IMG/VR virus record: IMGVR_UViG_3300002124_000001
Coordinates: 291 to 64,290 of that record
Strand: one strand, 5' to 3'
DNA from: a virus
Lineage: Duplodnaviria > Caudoviricetes
DNA: 64,000 nt
Shown here: positions 1,632 to 64,000 of the stretch, one piece after another
Position numbering within the stretch: the first letter of the stretch is position 1
Layout of the letters: every line of letters begins with the position of its first letter
The notes under the pieces: generated by a model
What the model saw: the letters and a program-made list of their open reading frames with translations, nothing else
Told to the model about the DNA's origin: nothing
Databases searched by the model: none
Program-made: the position numbers and the translations under genes

Positions 1632-1660
1632 TTGACATGGAACCTATCGCTTGGTATTAT
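1632..1660 (+). promoter_or_regulatory. strong sigma70 promoter of the rightward operon
   Basis: TTGACA-17 bp-TATTAT; inverted repeat GTGGGAA...TTCCCAC just upstream. Confidence 0.85.
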
Positions 1661-1686
1661 CGTCTCATCAGATAGGGAGAGACGAA

Positions 1687-1968
1687 ATGACCATGACAAT
1701 GACCACGGAGCAAATCGACATTGACATCGTCCATACGGGCTCCGACGAGCACGTACTGACGGCCTACGACCGCGACGGACACCCCATCTGCTCACTCTTG
1801 GCACCGGACCAAGACGTCGTCGGCGACATCGTGGAGGGGATCGATGGTGAGCGCACGGCCACGCTCGCGACCGTGACGATTCCGCTGTCTCGGCGCCATC
1901 GCACTGGGCGCCTTCACGCCGCGCTCTATCATGCCGCGGCAGCGGAATGGCCGATCGATGGCAAGTAA
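1687..1968 (+). CDS. hypothetical protein
   Basis: First ORF after the promoter; RBS GGGAGAG. Confidence 0.7.
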   Translation: MTMTMTTEQIDIDIVHTGSDEHVLTAYDRDGHPICSLLAPDQDVVGDIVEGIDGERTATLATVTIPLSRRHRTGRLHAALYHAAAAEWPIDGK

Positions 1969-2029
1969 GCACCGCGAGCAGAAAGCCGTGGACAACACGT
2001 ACGGCACCGGCAAGCTAGGGAGAGACGAA

Positions 2030-2251
2030 ATGACCATGACACAGACCGCCGCCTACCGCCCCTCAGACTTGGCCACCGCGACAGTCGACGCCCTCCGCGT
2101 CGAGGCTGGCAGTGCTGGCGACGGCGCGACCGTCCGCGACTGCGACGCGGTGCTCTACTGGCTCTCCAGTGGCGCCGCCGCAATGGGTGTCCGATGCCGC
2201 GCCGCCGTCAGGATCGCGCGCATCCTCACAGACGCGGCGGCCCATGAGTAA
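2030..2251 (+). CDS. hypothetical protein
   Basis: Shares the RBS/start block TAGGGAGAGACGAAATGACCATGACA with the previous gene. Confidence 0.65.
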   Translation: MTMTQTAAYRPSDLATATVDALRVEAGSAGDGATVRDCDAVLYWLSSGAAAMGVRCRAAVRIARILTDAAAHE

Positions 2252-2525
2252 GCACCCTGCCGCCGTCACCCTCGGGCGCCGCACAAGCGCCAAGAAAGCC
2301 ATCAGCAGCGCCCAGAACGGCCGCACGGGCGGTCGCCCACGCCTATACCGGCTCGCAATGGGCGATGAGGATGACGTCCTCCAACGCCGCCAAGGCGACC
2401 TGTGGCTGACGCTCCTCCCGCCCTATGAACGCGCGGCGAAAGCAGCCCTAGATCGTCTACGGACATCGCCCGCCAAAGTCGCCGCCGGCCGCAAGGGCGG
2501 CAGGCCCAAAGGGAGGCAGTCATGA
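2244..2525 (+). CDS. basic protein with two AK...GR.GGRP (AT-hook/KGG-like) motifs
   Basis: SAKKAISSAQNGRTGGRP and SPAKVAAGRKGGRP. Confidence 0.6.
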   Translation: MSKHPAAVTLGRRTSAKKAISSAQNGRTGGRPRLYRLAMGDEDDVLQRRQGDLWLTLLPPYERAAKAALDRLRTSPAKVAAGRKGGRPKGRQS

Positions 2526-2737
2526 ATACGTGCTACTGCGACCGGTGTTCGGAGCCCGACCCCATTTGCGAACACGGCGTCTCTACTCACGACGAGGACT
2601 GTCCTACGTGTGCGGCGGTGGCGGACGAGCTATGCGACGAGGAACTCGATCGGCTCCGTGCGGAACTGCGGGTGGTCGACACCCGCCGCAGGGCACTACG
2701 TGACCGGATCGAACATCTCACTGGGGTGCGACCATGA
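2522..2737 (+). CDS. Cys-rich hypothetical protein with C-terminal coiled coil
   Basis: CYCDRC...C..H...CPTC; ATGA overlaps. Confidence 0.6.
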   Translation: MNTCYCDRCSEPDPICEHGVSTHDEDCPTCAAVADELCDEELDRLRAELRVVDTRRRALRDRIEHLTGVRP

Positions 2738-3546
2738 GCCATATGAGCGAACGAGAGATTATGGTGGCAAACGGCGAGGCTTGTCCTTGTTGCCTGAGCG
2801 TGTACCCGGCGCCGACGGCGCATGCGGAAACCGTGACGTGTGGCACTTGCGAATTTGTCAACCAGTTTTCACCCCCAGCGTCCTCCGACGCGGATAACGT
2901 CACCGACAACCCGAAGTCGTGGATTGCGTGGAAGCGTCACGCCGAACGCTTGGTGGAAGAGAGGCGCCAGATCGGCATAGCGATGTTCGGGATGTGCGAT
3001 TGGCTACGCGCGCACGGGCATCAGCCGTTTCCAGGCGAGATACAGCGCTTGATCGCAGCGATTGTGATCGACACGAGCCCGTTATCTGGTGCCGAGATGG
3101 CCCGCTCGTATCAGTTGCTCGCAGAGGGCAAGTTGTCCGACGTGGCTTTGTCGCCAGCGGCCGGCGAGGCTCAGGACGCGAATGCGGTCCCAACGCTGCC
3201 CGACGCGGAAACCGCAGTGGCGGACGAGACGAGATGGCAGCCTATTGATATGACCGGCAAGACGTGCCATCGCGGCCACGAGTCGTATGTGGTCGGGTGT
3301 CGCTGGTGCGTGGCGCTCTGGAAGGCGGCGATTGAGGCGCAAACGGAGAGCCGTGACACTACCCGCCTCGCCGCTCTCTCCGAGTTCAACGGGGAGTTGA
3401 TCGCGCTGGTACGCGCTGCTGTGGCGGTTTTGGTGGAGCACGCGCCGCCTGACGGCTTGACCGACCATGACGCCATGAGTCGGATGTACGGCATTTTCGA
3501 TGGCCCTGAGTATCGCGCCCTCCTCGCCAAAGCGGAGACGCTATGA
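2734..3546 (+). CDS. mosaic hypothetical protein
   Basis: 270 aa, CPCC...CGTC and C..H..C..C motifs; ends RALLAKAETL. Confidence 0.6.
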   Translation: MSHMSEREIMVANGEACPCCLSVYPAPTAHAETVTCGTCEFVNQFSPPASSDADNVTDNPKSWIAWKRHAERLVEERRQIGIAMFGMCDWLRAHGHQPFPGEIQRLIAAIVIDTSPLSGAEMARSYQLLAEGKLSDVALSPAAGEAQDANAVPTLPDAETAVADETRWQPIDMTGKTCHRGHESYVVGCRWCVALWKAAIEAQTESRDTTRLAALSEFNGELIALVRAAVAVLVEHAPPDGLTDHDAMSRMYGIFDGPEYRALLAKAETL

Positions 3547-3785
3547 CCGACAACGAGACGGTGCGCGCGTTGGAGGACGATCCCGATGCGATGTACGACG
3601 AGATGCAACGGCGCGGGCGTGAACGTGACCTCGCGCACCGTCGCGTGCTCGAGCTGGAAACGATCAATGCCGAGTTGATCGCGGCGTTGAAGATGGCACT
3701 GGAGCCGTTCGACAACGACTCCACCGAACGCGAGCGCCGTCGACATATCGTGCGTGCCCTCCTCGCTAAAGCGGAGACCTTGTGA
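3543..3785 (+). CDS. hypothetical coiled-coil protein
   Basis: Also ends RALLAKAETL; ATGA/GTGA overlaps. Confidence 0.6.
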   Translation: MTDNETVRALEDDPDAMYDEMQRRGRERDLAHRRVLELETINAELIAALKMALEPFDNDSTERERRRHIVRALLAKAETL

Positions 3786-3994
3786 CTGAGCCCGGAACCC
3801 TCCAACGGCTCAAGCCGATCATCGACGACATGCAAGCCGCCAGCGATGCTATCGACGAATCGAGCGGCGGCTACGACTACAAGCCGCGGAATGGATGGTG
3901 GCGTGAGATGACTGGACCGAACAAGCCGTGCCGCACGCATCCGACACCGGTTCCGTGGTGTCAGTTCTGTCGTGACGCGGCGAAGAAGCGCTGA
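3782..3994 (+). CDS. hypothetical protein
   Basis: Coupled start; C..H...C..C motif. Confidence 0.5.
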   Translation: MTEPGTLQRLKPIIDDMQAASDAIDESSGGYDYKPRNGWWREMTGPNKPCRTHPTPVPWCQFCRDAAKKR

Positions 3995-4094
3995 GACATA
4001 AATTGTGCAGACCGCAACTCCAGTGAGCGTCAGTAAAGAACAGTGCGAGCCGTAAGCCGATGCGCACCCGCTCCGGCCCGTGACCCAGGAGTAA

Positions 4095-4397
4095 ATGATG
4101 GATACGACCACGCAGATTGCTTGGGTGATTGGTGGCCCGATTGGCCTCATCATGATCGGCTTGGTGATCAGTGAGTTGAGGCGTGGGCCGTCCACTTATG
4201 GCACCACCCAATGCTCGACCTGTGCGGACACGGGGCAATACTGTCTCGCCTGTCAGCAGGTCGCGATCCAAGCCTGCTACGACACGCACGTCGATCAGTT
4301 GCATCATTACGGGTGTCCCGACTGTGCGGCGTGGCCGATCCACATCCCGGCAGTCCGCGAGAGCCAGTGGGCACGCACCTTCCGCAGCCGTAAGTAG
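4095..4397 (+). CDS. membrane-anchored Cys-rich protein
   Basis: N-terminal TM segment, several CxxC motifs, RBS AGGGAG. Confidence 0.6.
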   Translation: MMDTTTQIAWVIGGPIGLIMIGLVISELRRGPSTYGTTQCSTCADTGQYCLACQQVAIQACYDTHVDQLHHYGCPDCAAWPIHIPAVRESQWARTFRSRK

Positions 4398-4408
4398 ATG
4401 ACTCGACG

Positions 4409-4479
4409 ACACTGACCGACTCGCACGGCCGCGCCCCGAAGTATTTCGGTTTCCCAGCACGACCGTACGAATCAATCAG
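4409..4479 (-). ncRNA. G.U-rich hairpin element, copy 1
   Basis: On the minus strand a 23-bp stem with 6 G.U pairs encloses UGGGAAA-CCGAA(AUAC)UUCGG-G; repeated at 5450-5521. Confidence 0.6.
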
Positions 4480-4510
4480 GCTTCACGACCAGGGAGTAGA
4501 ATCAGCACCA

Positions 4511-4801
4511 ATGAACGACGACGCGATCCTGCCAGACGACATCACCGTGAAGCACCTGACTGTGCCCAGCACCGACGCCGAATGGCTGCGCCAACAGAGC
4601 GTGGCGTATGCGAAACGGTTCTCGGTGAGACACGAGGCCGTCGACGCGACGCTGGGAGGAATCCTCGGCGACGAGCCAGACACACAGCGACGGATGGTGC
4701 GCGGCATCGCTCACTACTTCATCGACGACCTCGAAGTATCCCAGGACCAGTTTGAACGAGAGTGGGCTGCTCAGCCGGCGGCCGAGGCGGCGCAACCGTG
4801 A
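4511..4801 (+). CDS. acidic hypothetical protein
   Basis: 96 aa ORF between the two hairpin copies. Confidence 0.6.
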   Translation: MNDDAILPDDITVKHLTVPSTDAEWLRQQSVAYAKRFSVRHEAVDATLGGILGDEPDTQRRMVRGIAHYFIDDLEVSQDQFEREWAAQPAAEAAQP

Positions 4802-5103
4802 GCCGCGTTCCGTGCAAGCGATGCGGACTGATGATTGATCCGAAGGCGTACGGCAATGCCGGGGAGCGATGCCGGAACGTAGCCGCATGTGACCGCCGCG
4901 CCGACGCGCGGAAGCGACTACCCAAGATCGCAAGCGTCGAGCATGACGTTGACGGCTGGTGGGTGGTTCTTAACCCAGGCTGGATTATCCCGAACGACAA
5001 CACGCACGCGGCCGTCGAGGACCGGAAGGCTGATGCGCTCGCGACGGCGCGCCGCGCTGTTCCGTGCGACTGCGACGAGTGCCAAAGGTTGCTCGTCTCA
5101 TGA
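4798..5103 (+). CDS. Cys-rich hypothetical protein
   Basis: CKRC...C....C and CDCDEC; GTGA/ATGA overlaps. Confidence 0.6.
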   Translation: MSRVPCKRCGLMIDPKAYGNAGERCRNVAACDRRADARKRLPKIASVEHDVDGWWVVLNPGWIIPNDNTHAAVEDRKADALATARRAVPCDCDECQRLLVS

Positions 5104-5438
5104 GCGATTCATCAAAGGAAGCCGTGGCCCTCCGCGCGGCGGCTGTGGAATGGACGGATGGCGCACGCGGCCCAGTGCTGGACGCGCATGACAGTGCGGG
5201 CCTGCGCCGTGACAACAAGCTGAAGCGTGCCGCGGTACGCTTCAGCATGACAAAAAAGCGCGGCTACTCAGACGAGTTCCCGACGACCCGCGAGAAGCGG
5301 GTCTACTTCATGCTCGACAAGATCCCCCCAGCGCTGTGGATTCGCGTGAAGGCCAAGGCGAAGCGGGAAGGCGTCTCGCTGCGGACGTTGATTCTCGGTT
5401 GGTGCAAAGAGTGGGTCGAGCCGCCCACTAGCGCCTAA
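5100..5438 (+). CDS. Arc/RHH-like DNA-binding protein (possible internal start at 5247)
   Basis: MTKKRGYS...IPPALWIRVKAKAKREGVSLRTLILGW; paralogue at 44147-44326. Confidence 0.7.
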   Translation: MSDSSKEAVALRAAAVEWTDGARGPVLDAHDSAGLRRDNKLKRAAVRFSMTKKRGYSDEFPTTREKRVYFMLDKIPPALWIRVKAKAKREGVSLRTLILGWCKEWVEPPTSA

Positions 5439-5449
5439 ATCGTTCTTCT

Positions 5450-5521
5450 ACACTGACCGACTCGCACGGCCGCGCCCCGCAGAAATGCGGTTTCCCAGCA
5501 CGGACCGTACGAATCAATCAG
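5450..5521 (-). ncRNA. G.U-rich hairpin element, copy 2
   Basis: Same long stem with a 1-nt bulge; inner hairpin CCGCA/UGCGG replaces CCGAA/UUCGG (compensatory change). Confidence 0.6.
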
Positions 5522-5544
5522 ACTTGCCGTGCTACACTCCACTC

Positions 5545-5672
5545 GTCAGGCTGCGAATTGCGCGGAGGCCTTCGCGCACGTCGTTCGTCTAATAGCTAGG
5601 ACGCGGTTATAGCCGGAGGGCGCCCCCGGCGATCCCGATATGGCGGTGCAATTCCACCACGGCCAGCCTGAC
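5545..5672 (+). ncRNA. tRNA-like small RNA inside a GUCAGGCUG/CAGCCUGAC terminal stem (RNA 1)
   Basis: Extended -10 TG-C-TACACT at 5530-5538; D-arm GUCU/GGAC; T-arm GGCGG-UGCAAUU-CCACC; 5-bp acceptor GUCGU/ACGGC; hairpin where the anticodon loop should be. Confidence 0.6.
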
Positions 5673-5677
5673 AACTT

Positions 5678-5785
5678 TTACCACGCGCTATAGGCTCCTG
5701 ACAGCGCCCAGTAGATCGCCATCCCCAGCGCCAACGCGAGCACACAGTAGGCGATGACGCGATCCACCTGTGTCGGCGTGCTCAC
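5678..5785 (-). CDS. 35-aa TM peptide
   Basis: MSTPTQVDRVIAYCVLALALGMAIYWALSGAYSAW; read manually. Confidence 0.45.
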   Translation of the reverse strand: MSTPTQVDRVIAYCVLALALGMAIYWALSGAYSAW

Positions 5786-5955
5786 TGATGGGGGCACCAG
5801 TACGCATCGACCTCGTGATACCGCCAGCCGTCGTCACTGTGCGAGGTCTGCCGGAACACCTTCCGCTGCCAGATGATGATCGGCGGTGGCACCACGTCAC
5901 CCAACTCGAGCGTGGCCACGATGAACGTCTCGCCTCGGTGCAGCTTGACCGTCAT
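5782..5955 (-). CDS. 57-aa hypothetical protein
   Basis: MTVKLHRGETFIVATLELGDVVPPPIIIWQRKVF...; GTGA overlap with the TM peptide. Confidence 0.45.
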   Translation of the reverse strand: MTVKLHRGETFIVATLELGDVVPPPIIIWQRKVFRQTSHSDDGWRYHEVDAYWCPHQ

Positions 5956-5972
5956 GTGCTAGACTCCTTCTC

Positions 5973-6113
5973 GTCAGGCTGCGGCGTGGATGGACACGCG
6001 CCTCGGTGCAACCCCGGATGCTGGGCGTGGCCAAGAACCCGCCCGGAAGTGGCGCAGTGACTGCTCGGTCTTGGCCATGCAGTCGAGCCGGAATCAAGCC
6101 CGGCCAGCCTGAC
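5973..6113 (+). ncRNA. multi-hairpin small RNA with the same terminal stem (RNA 2)
   Basis: Extended -10 TG-C-TAGACT at 5957-5965; same 5' CUCGUCAGGCUGCG and 3' CGGCCAGCCUGACAACUU as RNA 1; 12-bp internal helix 6025-6036/6069-6080. Confidence 0.55.
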
Positions 6114-6158
6114 AACTTCATCCCCATTCGCCAGCCTCCGGTTTTTGAAATCTCGCCA

Positions 6159-6350
6159 TTAGCCCGCCTTCGCCTCGGCCGCCCGTTTCGCCTGCTGCTT
6201 CTCGACCACGCTCCACACGACGCCGATCACCGTCATCAGCCCACCAATCGCGGCCTGTAGGTCAGAGTCCGAGAGCGTGCCGTTGGTCACGAGCACCCCA
6301 CCGACGGTGGTCAGGATGTGCCGCACGATGCCAAGTACCATGGATCCCAT
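6159..6350 (-). CDS. small holin-like membrane protein, second copy
   Basis: Near-identical protein to the C-terminal part of 8039-8314; two TM segments and a basic tail. Confidence 0.7.
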   Translation of the reverse strand: MGSMVLGIVRHILTTVGGVLVTNGTLSDSDLQAAIGGLMTVIGVVWSVVEKQQAKRAAEAKAG

Positions 6351-6486
6351 CGTTGTCTGCACCTTTCTGTGAATCGCCTTGGCCGGCAGGACGACACGCT
6401 CCTCTACGCAACCAAGGTGATCGCGCTTTCCCAGCGAAGCGTTCCCACCCGCACCGGCCAACTCGTCCGTGCTAGGATTCGCTCAG

Positions 6487-6828
6487 ATGCCCATAGTTCT
6501 TGAAGAACAGCAGATTCAGCGCGCGACATCCTTGATGTTGTCGGACTGGCTGACGCATCACGCTGACTGTGAATCATTCTTTGAACGCACGTGCTCGTGT
6601 GGACTTCAGAACACACTCGCCGTATTGCTGGGCGACGAACCGTATACGATGATGGCCGTCAGAGGTGCCCACGTCGACATCCCGATCTATCGGGAGTTTT
6701 CTGCGAGGGTCCAAGATGCTGTTTCTCCAGTCAAACTCGAAGTCGTCGGCGTCCGTTACCTTGAGATAGGCCGCCCTCGTGTCGTTCGCTTCCAGGGGCG
6801 CCTCATCGTCTTGAGTCGAACCCAGTGA
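6487..6828 (+). CDS. hypothetical protein
   Basis: Preceded by extended -10 TG-C-TAGGAT (6470-6478). Confidence 0.55.
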   Translation: MPIVLEEQQIQRATSLMLSDWLTHHADCESFFERTCSCGLQNTLAVLLGDEPYTMMAVRGAHVDIPIYREFSARVQDAVSPVKLEVVGVRYLEIGRPRVVRFQGRLIVLSRTQ

Positions 6829-7145
6829 ACTACGATCATCTTCGAGTCCTCGATCAGTTGTCGCACAGCGAGTGGCGCTCACCGCAAGAGATCGCGCTTC
6901 GCCTGAGTCCAGGCGCGGCTACGTCATTCTGGTACGGCACTCTCGCCCATGTGCACGCCGCGCTGCGCTCGCTTGAGGAAGGCGAATACGCCGAGCGTCG
7001 TCAACGCGACATCTCTCCGGAGCGTCTCGCGAACCGTGGCGGACGTCCTGAAAGCGAATACCGACTCACCGAACCAGGGGTGCGCCGTCGCGTCGAAAAC
7101 GACCAGCGCGCGAGCCTTCCGAACGCCGTTCCTTCAGAGGCGTAG
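6825..7145 (+). CDS. winged-helix (PadR-like) protein
   Basis: VHAALRSLEEGEYAERR...GGRPESEYRLTEPG resembles a PadR wing. Confidence 0.6.
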   Translation: MNYDHLRVLDQLSHSEWRSPQEIALRLSPGAATSFWYGTLAHVHAALRSLEEGEYAERRQRDISPERLANRGGRPESEYRLTEPGVRRRVENDQRASLPNAVPSEA

Positions 7146-8038: not shown

Positions 8039-8314
8039 CTACGCCCCCGCCTTCGCCTCGGCCGCCCGCTTGGCCTGCTGCTTCTCCACGACGGACCACA
8101 CGACGCCGATGACGGTCATCAGCCCGCCAATCGCGGCTTGTAGGTCAGAGTCCGCAATCGTGCCGTTGGTCACGAGCACCCCGCCGATCGTGGTCAGGAT
8201 GTGTCGCACCACGCCTAACACCATGGATCCCATCGCCTTCTCCATTCCCTTGTGAATCGCCTTCGCCGGCAGGACGACCGGCGCGGCGACAATGCGTCCG
8301 AGCTTCTTCCACAT
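8039..8314 (-). CDS. holin-like membrane protein
   Basis: Two TM segments; directly follows the endolysin. Confidence 0.7.
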   Translation of the reverse strand: MWKKLGRIVAAPVVLPAKAIHKGMEKAMGSMVLGVVRHILTTIGGVLVTNGTIADSDLQAAIGGLMTVIGVVWSVVEKQQAKRAAEAKAGA

Positions 8315-8752
8315 TTAATGATCCGGCGGTTCCGCGCCGGTCCTCAACGCCTGACACAACCACGGCCCACGCCTCCCGACTTGCGTGAACCACTTCGAGT
8401 CTTCGAGATGCGCCGCCGCCGACTGACAATCATTCCGCGCCATCGCCGCGATCGTGCTGGTGAACTTCAGCAGCCTCGTAATGCCCAGGTTGAAGCAGAG
8501 ATCGACCCACACGCGCTGCCGCATGGGATCGAGCACCCCAAACCACGGAAAGGATTTCGCGCACTCCGCGAGACAGATTTCGATGTCGTGCTCAAGCAGC
8601 GTGTAGGCTTCGCCTTCCGTGATGCCGCGGTCCCTCAGGTTGCGTCCAACGCCGATCGTCGGAATACCCAGGGAGTCCTCGTAGACGGTGAGACGTAGCC
8701 CCTCGTGGCGGACGAGCTGATCGCGGAGTTTGGCGTAGTCCAAGGGGTTCAT
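8315..8752 (-). CDS. endolysin, T4-type/GH24-like lysozyme
   Basis: LVRHEGLRLTVYEDSLGIPTIGVGRNL (E-x8-D-x5-T triad); DSKWFTQVGRR. Confidence 0.92.
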   Translation of the reverse strand: MNPLDYAKLRDQLVRHEGLRLTVYEDSLGIPTIGVGRNLRDRGITEGEAYTLLEHDIEICLAECAKSFPWFGVLDPMRQRVWVDLCFNLGITRLLKFTSTIAAMARNDCQSAAAHLEDSKWFTQVGRRGPWLCQALRTGAEPPDH

Positions 8753-41038: not shown

Positions 41039-42364
41039 TCAGTCCTTGTACGGATCGAATTCGTCGCCACCAGCCATCACCACGATGCGCGGCTGTAACG
41101 TGTGCGCGATCTCGATGGTGTTCGCGTGCGCGTCCAGCACGGACCGCAACGGCCGATAGACTGGCGGGGCTTCATCGGCTCCAGCACCGCGTAGCACGAC
41201 GCCACGCTCAACCAGTTTCGCTTTTTCGGCGGTGAAGTCTACGAGGCCGTTGGCCAGGCGCTCCATCCACGTCCGCTTGTTGGTTCGACTTCCACACTTC
41301 GGACACTTCGGATTGCTGCCGTCTGCCCCGCGTGCCGTGTTGTGCACCGGCAATAAGCCGTCGCAGTCTCGCTGGCCGCAGCACCACGCCTTGATCCACT
41401 TCTGCTTGCCTGCGGCCTGCGTGCGGCTCATGACTCGGCCGGCCCCGTGGACCGTCGAGTAGAGCGCCAGGGCTGACTCCTCGCTTTCCACGCCGCGCAG
41501 AATCACCGAGATGTCGCCCATGGACCCGCCGACGAACCCCCACTGACCAGGAAACGCGGGCGTCGCTCCCTTGCGAACTACCCACAGTGTCTCCCCGAGA
41601 TGTGTCTCACGCCACGCGAAATTGTGGTGATTGTGAACGGACCACTGAGAATCAGCACCGAGAATCTCCAGCGTCTTCGCCACAACGGCTTCGCGGCCGG
41701 CATAGGCGAACTCTCCGGCGATCGTCATCGCCTCGATGTAGTCCTGTCCGCTGGGCGCGCTGATGTCTAGCAGGAGCGGCGGCGCGTCCATCTCTCCTTC
41801 GCCCTTGCCGTCGTCGAACGCGCGCCCCTGCGCGATGTTCATAAACCCGGTCGCCGTCTTGTGCCCGAACCCGCGAGAGCCGAAGTGGCACGCCACCCAG
41901 AGCACGCCGGCCTCGTCCTCGAGCACGTCTACGTAGTGGTTCCCGCTCCCCACCGTCCCGAGTTGGTTCTGGGCCATCTGCACCATGTGGCGCTGTGATG
42001 ACACTGGAGATTTCTGAATGCGATCGAACACCGGTGAATCGATCGGCTCGTTGTTCTTCCGTCCCACGCCGAAACTGATACGGCGCTGGATCTCGTCCGC
42101 GAGTCGTTCCATCTCCGCGTGCGGAATGTCGGCCGCTATTAGATTCGTCTGCACGGCCATGTTCCCGCAGGCGATGTCATAGCCGACCCCGGACGGAGAG
42201 ACGAATCGGCGGTAGCCGACGACTCCACCGATGGGCATGGAGTATCCAACATGCCCGTCGGCGCAGAGCACACCGATCGCGCCATCCTCGGCCGCCACGC
42301 ACCGCTCCAACTGCTGCTTGGTCCGATCATCATGCTCGCCGTAAATCTTCATCGATTTTCTCAT
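41039..42364 (-). CDS. rtcB: RtcB family RNA 3'-phosphate/5'-OH ligase
   Basis: ADGHVGYSMPIGG, VGYDIACG, GTVGSGNHY, HNHHN, RKGATP, HGAGR.MSR, DEAP..Y. Confidence 0.95.
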   Translation of the reverse strand: MRKSMKIYGEHDDRTKQQLERCVAAEDGAIGVLCADGHVGYSMPIGGVVGYRRFVSPSGVGYDIACGNMAVQTNLIAADIPHAEMERLADEIQRRISFGVGRKNNEPIDSPVFDRIQKSPVSSQRHMVQMAQNQLGTVGSGNHYVDVLEDEAGVLWVACHFGSRGFGHKTATGFMNIAQGRAFDDGKGEGEMDAPPLLLDISAPSGQDYIEAMTIAGEFAYAGREAVVAKTLEILGADSQWSVHNHHNFAWRETHLGETLWVVRKGATPAFPGQWGFVGGSMGDISVILRGVESEESALALYSTVHGAGRVMSRTQAAGKQKWIKAWCCGQRDCDGLLPVHNTARGADGSNPKCPKCGSRTNKRTWMERLANGLVDFTAEKAKLVERGVVLRGAGADEAPPVYRPLRSVLDAHANTIEIAHTLQPRIVVMAGGDEFDPYKD

Positions 42365-43197
42365 CGCCGCACCCGCGTGAAGACGTGATCGCGTCGATCG
42401 TGATCCGCGCGACCACTCCCGCACACACCGCACGGCATCTCGCCTTCCTTGAGTTCGCGATTCAGTGGCGCACTCGGCATCGTCGGAGGCCTCGGCTGTC
42501 GATCGAACACCGGCCCGGCGAGGATCCGCCTGATCGCGTCCGAGAGATTGCCAGGGACTCGTGGCATGGTCAGTTCTCCTACCGAGGACGGCAGGCGTAA
42601 AACTTGATCTCGGTGCCGCTCGGCACGGCGATCACGGCGTGCCCCAACGCGCGGGCCGTCTTCACAGCCGAGAAGTTTCCTGGCTCGCTCGTGAAGTCCG
42701 ACGAGCCGATATGGACTCCGCCGACGTAGTCCTGCGACCACCGGTTATTGTTGCTGGACTCGATGCGCTCAAGTTCTTCGACGCGCTTCTTCAGACGACG
42801 CGCCTCGCGCTGCGAGATCTTCATGCTGCAATCCTCAGGCTCTTCAGGAACCGTTTGTCGCGCACCGTCGGATACCACCAACTCGGAAACTGCACGGCCT
42901 CAGCCTGATTGGACGTGAACGTCTCGCCGCCGCATTTGAAGCAGGTCATGAGCCCCGGCTCACGCGCCACGATAAACGTCCCCAGCGTCCGAGGGGATCC
43001 GCAGGCGAGGCAAAAGATCTGGCGCGTCGGGATGATCACGGCTTCTCCCTCGTGTCGATCTGCTCTCGAGGGCCATGCCCGCTCAAGGGCCTGCCGGATC
43101 CGGACGGCCTCCTGATGGGTCCGGTCGAGTTCAAAGAAGATACCCAGGGTCAGAATCATCAAGACCACCAGCGCGACGATCACGCGGTCGTTGTCGC

Positions 43198-43926
43198 TCA
43201 TGAACGGGCCTCTGGGAACTCGTCCCATGTGCGGCCGTCGAGGATGCGCCCGCCAGACTTCGGCGTCGCGCCGCCCCACTGCTTGAACAAGAACGGAACA
43301 CCGGCAGCGACACACTGATCCCGGACGGAGCGCACCCACTCGACGTTGGGAGGCCGGCGGCGCGGCCCGCTCTCGAACCCCGCGATTACCCAATCGATCC
43401 CCGTGAGGTCAAGCACGCCCAAATCGCCGAGCAATGGTTCAATCGAGACGAACCGCAGACCGCTCGGGCAGGCACGAAGCAGATCCAGCCTGAACTTGAA
43501 CGCCGCGTTCTCCAGACTGACCCCGTGCCAGATGTGCCGGGACGGAATCCGCGAGTCGTAGCGCCACGACAGGTACTTCAGCATCCGCTCAGGGCGCTTC
43601 GTTAGAAGTTGATACGTGTGCCAATGCGCACGCTGCTCCATTGTGTGATAGACCTCGTGGAGGAACCGATCAGGCACGTCGTCATGAAACAGATCGCTGA
43701 GGCTGTCGACGAAGATCCGCTGCGGCTTCTTCCACCGCTGCGGCCAGGTGAGGCGGTTCTCGTGGATGATGAGCGGAATGTGACCCTTGACGAACTTGCG
43801 ACCGTTCATTCTAAATGGCGGCGTCCGCTCGATATAGCACCGGGCACACGCCGGGCTCACCTTCGTGCAACCCGTTGTCGGATTCCACGTCGCGTCCGTC
43901 CATTCGATCGCGCTATTCTCGCTCAT
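43198..43926 (-). CDS. phage Gp37/Gp68 (DUF5131) protein
   Basis: SAIEWTDATWNPTTGCTKVSPACARCY; SLSDLFH; LLTKRPER; FVSIEPLLG; PFLFKQWGG. Confidence 0.92.
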   Translation of the reverse strand: MSENSAIEWTDATWNPTTGCTKVSPACARCYIERTPPFRMNGRKFVKGHIPLIIHENRLTWPQRWKKPQRIFVDSLSDLFHDDVPDRFLHEVYHTMEQRAHWHTYQLLTKRPERMLKYLSWRYDSRIPSRHIWHGVSLENAAFKFRLDLLRACPSGLRFVSIEPLLGDLGVLDLTGIDWVIAGFESGPRRRPPNVEWVRSVRDQCVAAGVPFLFKQWGGATPKSGGRILDGRTWDEFPEARS

Positions 43927-60657: not shown

Positions 60658-61247
60658 GCCACATGCCTCCACTGAATGCCGCGCTTGATGTTGGAGACGG
60701 TGTGGACGGAGCATCCGAATCTTCGAGCCACAGTGACGCCAGATTCACCGGACTGAAGAGCAGACTTGATCTGAGAAACTACGGCTTCGGTGAGCTTCGC
60801 CAGAGGATGCAGGGAACCAACCATCTTCAGGTTGGCGGCTCGCCACGCACCAATATTGAACTTCAGAGGATCGCAGAACGTCCGTTTCCGACGCCCCTTT
60901 TGGATCATGTCGGCGGTGTTGTCAGCGGACGTTCCGAGGAATAAGTGGAACGGACTGACACAGATCGGGTTATCGCAGCGATGGCAGACCAGCAGCCCGT
61001 CTGGAATGAACCGACGCCTGAAGAGCGCCCACGCCACGCGATGCGCTCTGTGCATCTTCCCAGCAGCCTTAAACAGACCGTAGCCGTGCGGATCCTTTGT
61101 GCCGTTCCAGGGCCAACATTGATACGGCCTCTGCGCGAACTTACCCAGAAACCGACTCACATCGGCTACTGACAGCGCCACGCCATTGAGCACGAGACGC
61201 GGACCTGCGCGGTTGCCTTCACTCTGCCCGTTTGCTACGATGTCCAT
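60654..61247 (-). CDS. HNH homing endonuclease with C-terminal HTH
   Basis: CWPWNG...YG...AHRVAW...VCHRCDNPICV.P.HL.LGT..DN. Confidence 0.92.
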   Translation of the reverse strand: MDIVANGQSEGNRAGPRLVLNGVALSVADVSRFLGKFAQRPYQCWPWNGTKDPHGYGLFKAAGKMHRAHRVAWALFRRRFIPDGLLVCHRCDNPICVSPFHLFLGTSADNTADMIQKGRRKRTFCDPLKFNIGAWRAANLKMVGSLHPLAKLTEAVVSQIKSALQSGESGVTVARRFGCSVHTVSNIKRGIQWRHVA

Positions 61248-61270
61248 TACCTAATCGGTCCTTTCATCTG

Positions 61271-61300
61271 GAGCCCGGGTGCAACCGGGCTCTTCGTCTT
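61271..61300. terminator. 8-bp hairpin, terminator-like
   Basis: GAGCCCGG-GTGCAA-CCGGGCTC; T-rich tail on the + strand only. Confidence 0.4.
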
Positions 61301-63614: not shown

Positions 63615-64000
63615 TCAGGCCGTCGCCGCCGTCGCAATCGCAGCCTCGATCACCGACCAGGGGATTTGCTTCGCGTCAAATAGGGCGATGAACTGCTCCG
63701 CCCGAGGACGGAGCAACATCGGCACGTCCACCAAATCCCGCGCATCGAAGGCATGCGCCATCGGGCAGTTCGACCACGAGTGACATTCCCAGTGCGTCTC
63801 GAAACTCTCCAGGGACTTTCCGGCGGCCGTCAGCAGCGCTGGGACAGTGACCGCGAAGTACTCCTCCAGCGTCTCGCCAGTGGGCAGGCGGACGTTCTTC
63901 GCCGATCTGAGGTCCGCCGATCTGAGGTCCGCCGATCTGAGGTCCGCCGATCTGAGGTCCGCCGATCTGAGGTCCGCCGATCTGAGGTCCGCCGATCTGA
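63615..64000 (-). CDS. pentapeptide-repeat protein (partial; N-terminus outside the window)
   Basis: Perfect 15-bp tandem GCCGATCTGAGGTCC, about 6.7 copies from 63901, encoding (ADLRS)n; then CHSWSNCPMAHAF domain. Confidence 0.85.
   Translation of the reverse strand, partial: RSADLRSADLRSADLRSADLRSADLRSADLRSAKNVRLPTGETLEEYFAVTVPALLTAAGKSLESFETHWECHSWSNCPMAHAFDARDLVDVPMLLRPRAEQFIALFDAKQIPWSVIEAAIATAATA

Follow-up and report, generated by a model that had tools for sequence, protein, structure and literature searches.

A soil phage with two putative plus-strand small RNA genes, one assigned to a phage RNA family laid out like the upper half of a tRNA

The stretch of DNA analysed here (the window, 64,000 nt in length with a GC content of 62.6%) covers nearly all of a 64,290-bp IMG/VR virus record with direct terminal repeats, and probably carries two autonomous small RNA genes on its plus strand. 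The second of these, RNA 2, belongs to a family of phage and prophage RNAs resembling the top half of a tRNA, for which a function as decoy or adaptor is proposed. The stretch is contained in a single soil DNA sequencing run (n = 1), and no RNA runs are listed with it. The features discussed below are the following, with positions given in the window:

1651-5438, plus strand: operon with a terminator-like repeat at its end
5529-5538, plus strand: extended -10 box of RNA 1, GTGCTACACT, with the start predicted at or next to G5545
5545-5672, plus strand: RNA 1, with a closing stem of 5545-5553 paired with 5664-5672 and a GCGCG..CGCGC hairpin
5584-5601 and about 5641-5657, plus strand: D-like arm and T-like arm of a weak cloverleaf-like interior of RNA 1
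5782-5955, minus strand: 57-aa gene with a GC3 profile, last in the late/lysis operon, between RNA 1 and RNA 2
5956-5965, plus strand: extended -10 box of RNA 2, GTGCTAGACT, abutting the start codon of the 57-aa gene (5953-5955, minus strand)
5973-6113, plus strand: RNA 2, aligned with 30 relatives, with a closing stem of 5973-5981 paired with 6105-6113, the inner 7 bp of which are acceptor-like
5984-5999, plus strand: D-like hairpin of RNA 2, GCGUG-GAUGGA-CACGC; the GAUGGA loop is found in 28 of 31 members and the stem covaries at three of five pairs
6001-6086, plus strand: hypervariable insert ('cargo'), which in RNA 2 includes a 12-bp helix
6087-6104, plus strand: T-like hairpin of RNA 2, GCCGG-AAUCAAGC-CCGGC, with no gap before the 3' strand of the closing stem
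6159-6461, minus strand: holin paralogue, late operon
8039-8314, minus strand: holin, late operon
8315-8752, minus strand: endolysin, late operon
Minus strand, long: late operon with terminase, portal, capsid and tail genes, endolysin, holin, holin paralogue and the 57-aa gene

The gene map was built from GC3 and checked with Pfam and PHROGs. RNA 2 is situated between the holin paralogue and the 57-aa gene, and RNA 1 lies past the 57-aa gene, where the plus-strand operon and the late operon converge. For the 57-aa protein an AlphaFold model was obtained with a pLDDT of 66.6, too weak for a structure search. Both holins (6159-6461 and 8039-8314, minus strand) belong to the Pam3 gp28 family and are 86% identical at the DNA level over 233 nt, the extra copy being located in an accessory island beside RNA 2. 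A 53-nt repeat is present at 4409-4461 and 5450-5502 (92% identity), each time after a plus-strand gene. As its hairpin differs between the two copies by compensatory changes (CCGAAGTATTTCGG versus CCGCAGAAATGCGG), this repeat is probably a terminator module.

RNA 1 and RNA 2 share a common frame. A TGCTAnACT extended -10 box is present in both elements, 6-7 nt ahead of GTCAGGCUG, and they have the same 5' block, CTCGTCAGGCTGCG, and the same 3' block, CGGCCAGCCTGACAACTT, giving a perfect and identical 9-bp closing stem around unrelated interiors. The window contains the paired flanking motifs twice, while none of 100 shuffles contained the pair. In the minimum-energy folds of both RNAs the 9-bp stem is followed by a 5-bp GCGYG hairpin, and both RNAs fold better than their shuffled sequences, with z-scores of -2.5 and -3.0. 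Reading of the sequence together with these folds thus agreed with the earlier, sequence-only reading, which had described the shared box, flanking blocks, stem and hairpin. Boxes of the type TGCTA[C/G]nnT are found five times in the window, all on the plus strand; four of them are intergenic and the fifth overlaps the start of a minus-strand gene. A TGCTA-type box at 6470 (GTGCTAGGAT) is located 8 nt ahead of the ATG of a 113-aa plus-strand gene, which looks like the arrangement of a leaderless mRNA. This gene and a 106-aa gene following it (6469-7145, plus strand) run antisense to the late operon, and no Pfam match was found for either. In L037, a contig described below, the same type of box precedes a small gene in the same arrangement. 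The distance of 8 nt between box and ATG at 6470 and in L037 places the predicted starts of RNA 1, RNA 2 and the copy on contig L007 at or next to the first G of the stem.

No relatives came from searches that used the shared stem as anchor. The stem pattern matched one viral contig and 26 metagenome contigs, all by chance within coding sequence and with neither the promoter nor the inner motifs; combined with the promoter it matched no viral contig, and the stem pattern gave no match in genomes. The reason for this failure is that the stem is what varies within the family. No relatives were obtained by blastn against cultured phages, and no close relatives by neighbour-protein searches in IMG/VR, while no further RNA copies turned up around homologues of two proteins encoded nearby, of 242 and 124 aa. 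The 57-aa protein has few homologues, and among their contexts the RNA element was found only in L007, a soil contig with a third stem-sharing copy directly upstream of the homologue. This copy has the stem, the box spacing (with the TGCTAGACT box) and the two inner hairpins of RNA 2, together with a different and shorter centre. A close relative, L037, allowed a direct comparison: between L007 (5883-5999) and L037 (346-435) the flanks are about 90% identical, and the RNA element is cleanly swapped for a gene encoding a 29-aa hydrophobic peptide. Since L037 and the other homologue contexts are without the element, it is an optional module.

A second pattern, consisting of the two inner hairpins of RNA 2 and L007 with the stem left out, was found in 19 IMG/VR contigs and five bacterial genomes, i.e. 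a Comamonas, two Acetobacter, a Komagataeibacter and a Bryobacterales MAG. With R1, a covariance model built from 22 members, second copies were detected in two of these five genomes, and copies were present in 8 of 151 Acetobacteraceae genomes sampled and in 2 of 151 sampled from the family to which Comamonas sp. PR12 belongs. The total amounted to 31 distinct copies. The copy in L007 scores 73.1 bits against R1. RNA 2 scores 89.8 bits, a match by construction as RNA 2 is among the 22 model-building sequences; its independent tie to the family is the inner hairpins in common. The hosts of the phages and prophages carrying the family are Alpha- and Betaproteobacteria and Acidobacteria, and the sporadic spread fits prophage carriage. 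The contexts and orientations of the members are unrelated (the terminase-portal gap, or positions beside RecT, RNR, integrase or NusG-like genes), and no recurrent gene family was found beside the RNA across the family loci. In one contig, L053, a second, partial copy (5940-6017) with a variant first hairpin, GGAAGGGGAC, follows the first and is truncated where the contig ends; tandem arrays thus exist outside the window phage as well. No model of Rfam 15 matched the family, nor did a literature search for its invariant sequences give a match. Judged from these searches, the family of RNA 2 is widespread in phages and prophages and absent from Rfam 15.

The consensus of the family reads as a variable closing stem, a CG linker, the hairpin GCGUG-GAUGGA-CACGC, a G, 42-90 variable nt, the hairpin GCCGG-UAUCAAGC-CCGGC, the 3' strand of the stem and usually an A. 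The insert of 42-90 nt is not conserved in sequence across members, which have neither its length nor its fold in common. In the alignment of 31 sequences 92.7% of cells are paired, and the covariation score is 0.365, compared with 0.114 for shuffles (none of 500 reached the observed score) and at most 0.136 for slid partners. Changes on both sides were seen at 12 of 19 pairs in all, including eight of nine pairs of the closing stem and three of five of the D-like stem. Of the closing stem, the inner seven pairs (columns 8-14) form in 27-31 of the 31 sequences and the outer two in about half of them. Covariation thus supports all three helices of the family. That the flanking stem would be the signature of such a family, as had been proposed, did not hold, the stem varying among members and being identical only in RNA 1, RNA 2 and L007. 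The accompanying notion of a scaffold plus cargo is a fair description of the family of RNA 2, with its near-invariant hairpins, covarying closing stem and hypervariable insert, the conserved scaffold being the two inner hairpins.

In its layout the family follows a tRNA: a 7-bp acceptor-like stem, lengthened to 9 bp in RNA 2, stacks on a T-like hairpin of 5 bp, and together they make up a 12-bp acceptor/T stack. A 2-nt linker leads to a D-like hairpin with GG in its loop. The T-like loop reads NAUCAAGY (8 nt) in 29 of 31 members and UUUCGAGU in L083, and the first pair of its stem covaries. This last loop contains UCRA, as T-loops do, and only L083 has the canonical T-loop letters. After the stem, 19 of the 31 members have an A and one of the 31 has a 3' CCA, and no conserved anticodon stem-loop is present across the family. 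As far as alignment and covariation can indicate, the family copies the upper half of a tRNA, with the hypervariable insert in place of the anticodon arm. The tRNA likeness claimed earlier is thus present, chiefly in the family of RNA 2 with its 7-bp/5-bp T-like stack and D-like arm, and it is weak in RNA 1.

For RNA 2 itself, the 12-bp helix, the GGUGCAACC loop and the last hairpin of the sequence-only reading are all there, and the last hairpin is invariant in the family. No intrinsic terminator was found after the stem in RNA 2 or L007. RNA 2 and the start of the 57-aa gene share a 12-nt direct repeat, CGCCTCGGTGCA (5931-5942 and 5999-6010), a result that none of 300 shuffles reached. It falls in codons 5-8 of the 57-aa gene and would permit pairing between RNA and mRNA. 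Antisense targeting of neighbour genes was nevertheless rejected, as no such repeat exists in RNA 1 or L007 and the local complementarity of the family inserts does not exceed chance; full-length duplex energies were uninformative.

The interior of RNA 1 has its own GC hairpin, a stretch resembling the D-arm of tRNA-Glu and a T-like hairpin with a C-A mismatch. The letters of the D-arm and of the T-arm with its UGCAAUU loop, on the basis of which RNA 1 had been called a tRNA mimic, are indeed present. However, ARAGORN at default settings called no tRNA in RNA 1 or RNA 2, and Rfam gave no family match for either at the gathering score or at E <= 10. At an 80% threshold ARAGORN returned a poor cloverleaf in RNA 1 (5578-5668) and an equally poor one on the opposite strand. 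Against model R1, RNA 1 scored 10.8 bits (E = 1.4 over the whole window) and aligned through its closing stem only, both inner hairpins being unlike the GAUGGA and UAUCAAGC hairpins of the family. A pattern search specific to RNA 1 gave no match in viral contigs. A shared GGUGCAA T-loop motif was considered and dropped, as GGTGCAA occurs 7 times in the window with 7.07 expected by chance. RNA 1 is thus not a detectable member of the family of RNA 2 and is at best weakly tRNA-like. We read it as a probable paralogous gene on the same promoter-and-stem chassis whose interior has been replaced.

The strand was assigned from the family as a whole. Sense promoters of the sigma70 type recur at a fitting distance in many members. 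They have the form TTGTAC-17/18-GATTCT in copies from Acetobacteraceae and TTGACA-17-TATGTT or TATGTG in L053 and L064, and the window phage and L007 have TGCTAGACT. Sense-strand pairs include 15 G-U against 6 A-C, and same-strand tRNA genes lie within 250 nt at 7 of 29 loci, in one case 2 nt downstream. The sense sigma70 promoters, the same-strand tRNA neighbours and the G-U excess together fix the plus strand; with the missing GC3 bias they bear out the earlier claim of promoter-driven non-coding RNA genes on this strand. From the loci compared, these genes appear to be autonomous, with no neighbouring gene required.

A function on the minus strand, in which the elements would be folded parts of the late mRNA (a leader of the 57-aa gene, a processing site or a 3' stabiliser), is considered unlikely. 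Both elements are inside or at the end of the minus-strand late operon, and RNA 2 and the L007 copy lie directly upstream of the same small gene. For the three stem-sharing copies (RNA 1, RNA 2 and L007) folding energies pick no strand; L007 folds slightly better on the minus strand and has two A-C positions that would be G-U there. The unrelated contexts and orientations of the family are at odds with such a function, however, as are the sense promoters and the sense-strand G-U excess; moreover, RNA 1 has no downstream minus-strand gene and the small-gene homologues are mostly without the element. That the elements encode small peptides on the minus strand is scarcely credible, even though minus-strand open frames cross all three stem-sharing copies (MGMKLSGWPGLIPA... 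in the window and MRVSGWPDLIPA... in L007), the lengths of the RNA 2 and L007 elements are divisible by 3 and a true 29-aa gene occupies the same site in L037. The GC3 bias of real genes is missing from these frames, GC by codon position being flat at 0.65/0.63/0.71 and 0.64/0.64/0.67, compared with 0.60/0.41/0.86 in the neighbour genes; the frame is not kept in RNA 1, and the insert lengths of the family vary freely. Elements acting at the DNA level, whether mobile repeats of the MITE kind or sites of recombination or integration bearing terminal inverted repeats, would account for the location of many copies next to tRNA genes and no more than about 1 kb from the end of a prophage or contig, and for the presence of the element in L007 where its relative has the 29-aa gene. 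Such an explanation is distinctly unlikely given that pairing is kept by compensatory and G-U changes while the sequence of the stem drifts, where sites of a transposase or recombinase would keep their sequence and not the pairing, and that the invariant letters sit in hairpin loops. In addition, no target-site duplication was seen at the swap site between L007 and L037, no recombinase is consistently linked and copies occur amid virion gene blocks. Integron attC sites were rejected by eye, the orientation of the core sites being wrong.

Among known RNAs, real but aberrant tRNAs that still decode, with an intron or an odd anticodon arm, would explain the tRNA-like topology with its 12-bp acceptor/T stack, the A that mostly follows the stem and the nearby tRNA genes. 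This is nevertheless very unlikely, because ARAGORN called none of the 31 members with or without introns, the members lack a conserved anticodon stem-loop, their inserts differ in both length and fold, and a search with the Rfam tRNA model was negative at E <= 10. With phage tRNAs (RF00005) the family has in common a 7-bp terminal stem on a 5-bp hairpin that abuts the 3' strand, the 2-nt linker, the hairpin with a GG loop and mostly an A after the stem, and members are scattered singly in phages, often beside true tRNAs and with their own promoters. Unlike them it has a hypervariable insert of 42-90 nt instead of the anticodon arm, a D-like arm of 5 bp with a 6-nt loop, a T-like loop of 8 nt (UAUCAAGC) rather than the canonical 7-nt UUCRANY, and no encoded CCA. 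tmRNA, too, has an acceptor stem made of its two ends, a T-arm adjoining the 3' strand and, where a tRNA would have its anticodon arm, a large insert unlike tRNA; its length of about 360 nt, pseudoknots, tag reading frame, G3-U70 pair and CCA end have no counterpart in the family, and an ARAGORN search for tmRNA was negative for the window RNAs and the 31 members. Phages also encode antisense RNAs that are matured by RNase P, such as c4 of P1 and P7 and the CI RNA of P4 (Rfam RF01695), small RNAs with a constant scaffold and variable loops whose ends mimic a tRNA acceptor for processing. The family resembles these RNAs in being small, phage-encoded and composed of a constant scaffold and a variable part with tRNA-acceptor-like ends, but no Rfam match was obtained and the complementarity of its inserts to neighbour genes does not go beyond chance. 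Retron msr-msd RNA was rejected, as no RVT_1 match was found in the complete 64,290-bp phage record. Bacterial Y RNAs of the YrlA or Yrn1 type, with Ro60/Rsr partners, are highly improbable. Their ends pair in a stem and they contain a tRNA-like module (PMC4201824), and YrlA and Yrn1 of D. radiodurans are likewise non-coding RNAs of about 100-130 nt with paired ends and D-/T-like arms that also occur in phages (PMC4201824). Y RNAs are, however, defined by binding of Ro60/Rsr and encoded beside rsr (PMC4201824), and a TROVE search was negative for the phage, in agreement with the earlier statement that it has no Ro60 gene; it was also negative for four of five carrier genomes, the fifth giving one weak, distant match. 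In YrlA, which has a GNCGAA(N)G motif, the T arm precedes the D arm (PMC4201824), whereas in the family of RNA 2 the D-like arm comes before the T-like arm and the motif is lacking; reading of the sequence did not find it in RNA 1 or RNA 2, and no Y RNA of Rfam matched.

In the preferred explanation of two autonomous small RNA genes, RNA 1 and RNA 2 would be transcribed independently on the plus strand from host-type extended -10 promoters, with the first base of the closing stem, or a base adjoining it, as the start. They would probably be matured like tRNAs, by RNase P and 3' trimming. The RNAs could then occupy a factor of host or phage origin that recognises the elbow of tRNAs and their acceptor/T-arm helix, or recruit it to the insert. 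Such a role as decoy or adaptor, not in decoding, is suggested by shape alone. Mimicry of anticodon-nuclease substrates is unlikely because the family is without an anticodon arm. A bolder version, which we regard as doubtful, sees a programmable phage 'adaptor' RNA in which the constant tRNA top half docks on a host factor specific for the tRNA elbow and acceptor end, and the swappable insert sets the specificity. Candidate factors would be RNase P, the CCA-adding enzyme, EF-Tu or a defence toxin acting on tRNA acceptor ends by modification or cleavage, and the insert could serve as bait, guide or second binding site. If this were true, phages could keep promoter and stem as a fixed chassis and swap the insert, or even, as in RNA 1, the entire interior, in response to different defences of their hosts.

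Phage non-coding RNAs are poorly charted, and here what seemed an oddity of one soil phage proved to be one copy of a structured, covarying RNA family. A tRNA top half without anticodon points to the tRNA-handling machinery rather than to decoding, and interactions with this machinery are an active area, tRNAs being the target of many anti-phage systems. Komagataeibacter oboediens LMG 18849, Acetobacter lovaniensis DSM 4491 and Comamonas sp. PR12 are carriers that are listed as isolates; if these can be obtained and grown, the family RNA would be open to experiment.

Some further observations were made in the window. The phage encodes an RtcB-type RNA ligase (41039-42433, minus strand, Pfam E = 3e-64), and a DUF5131 protein is encoded near it (43198-43926). 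A link of RtcB with the RNA was rejected, as RtcB was not found in ten other phage contigs carrying the family. The C-terminal half of the 124-aa protein (5064-5438, plus strand) is 93-97% identical in dozens of soil metagenome contigs and conserved far above its surroundings, and in one contig (L045) a homologue of this protein adjoins an integrase and an att site with a tRNA fragment. At 61265-61300 on the plus strand a perfect hairpin of 8 bp, with GUGCAA in the loop and a U-rich tail, is located just upstream of a minus-strand gene start at 61247; this gene is absent from the GC3-based gene map. Near the genome end (63885-63989) the 15-bp unit CGCCGATCTGAGGTC is repeated seven times in tandem, and this array could represent iterons or be related to packaging.
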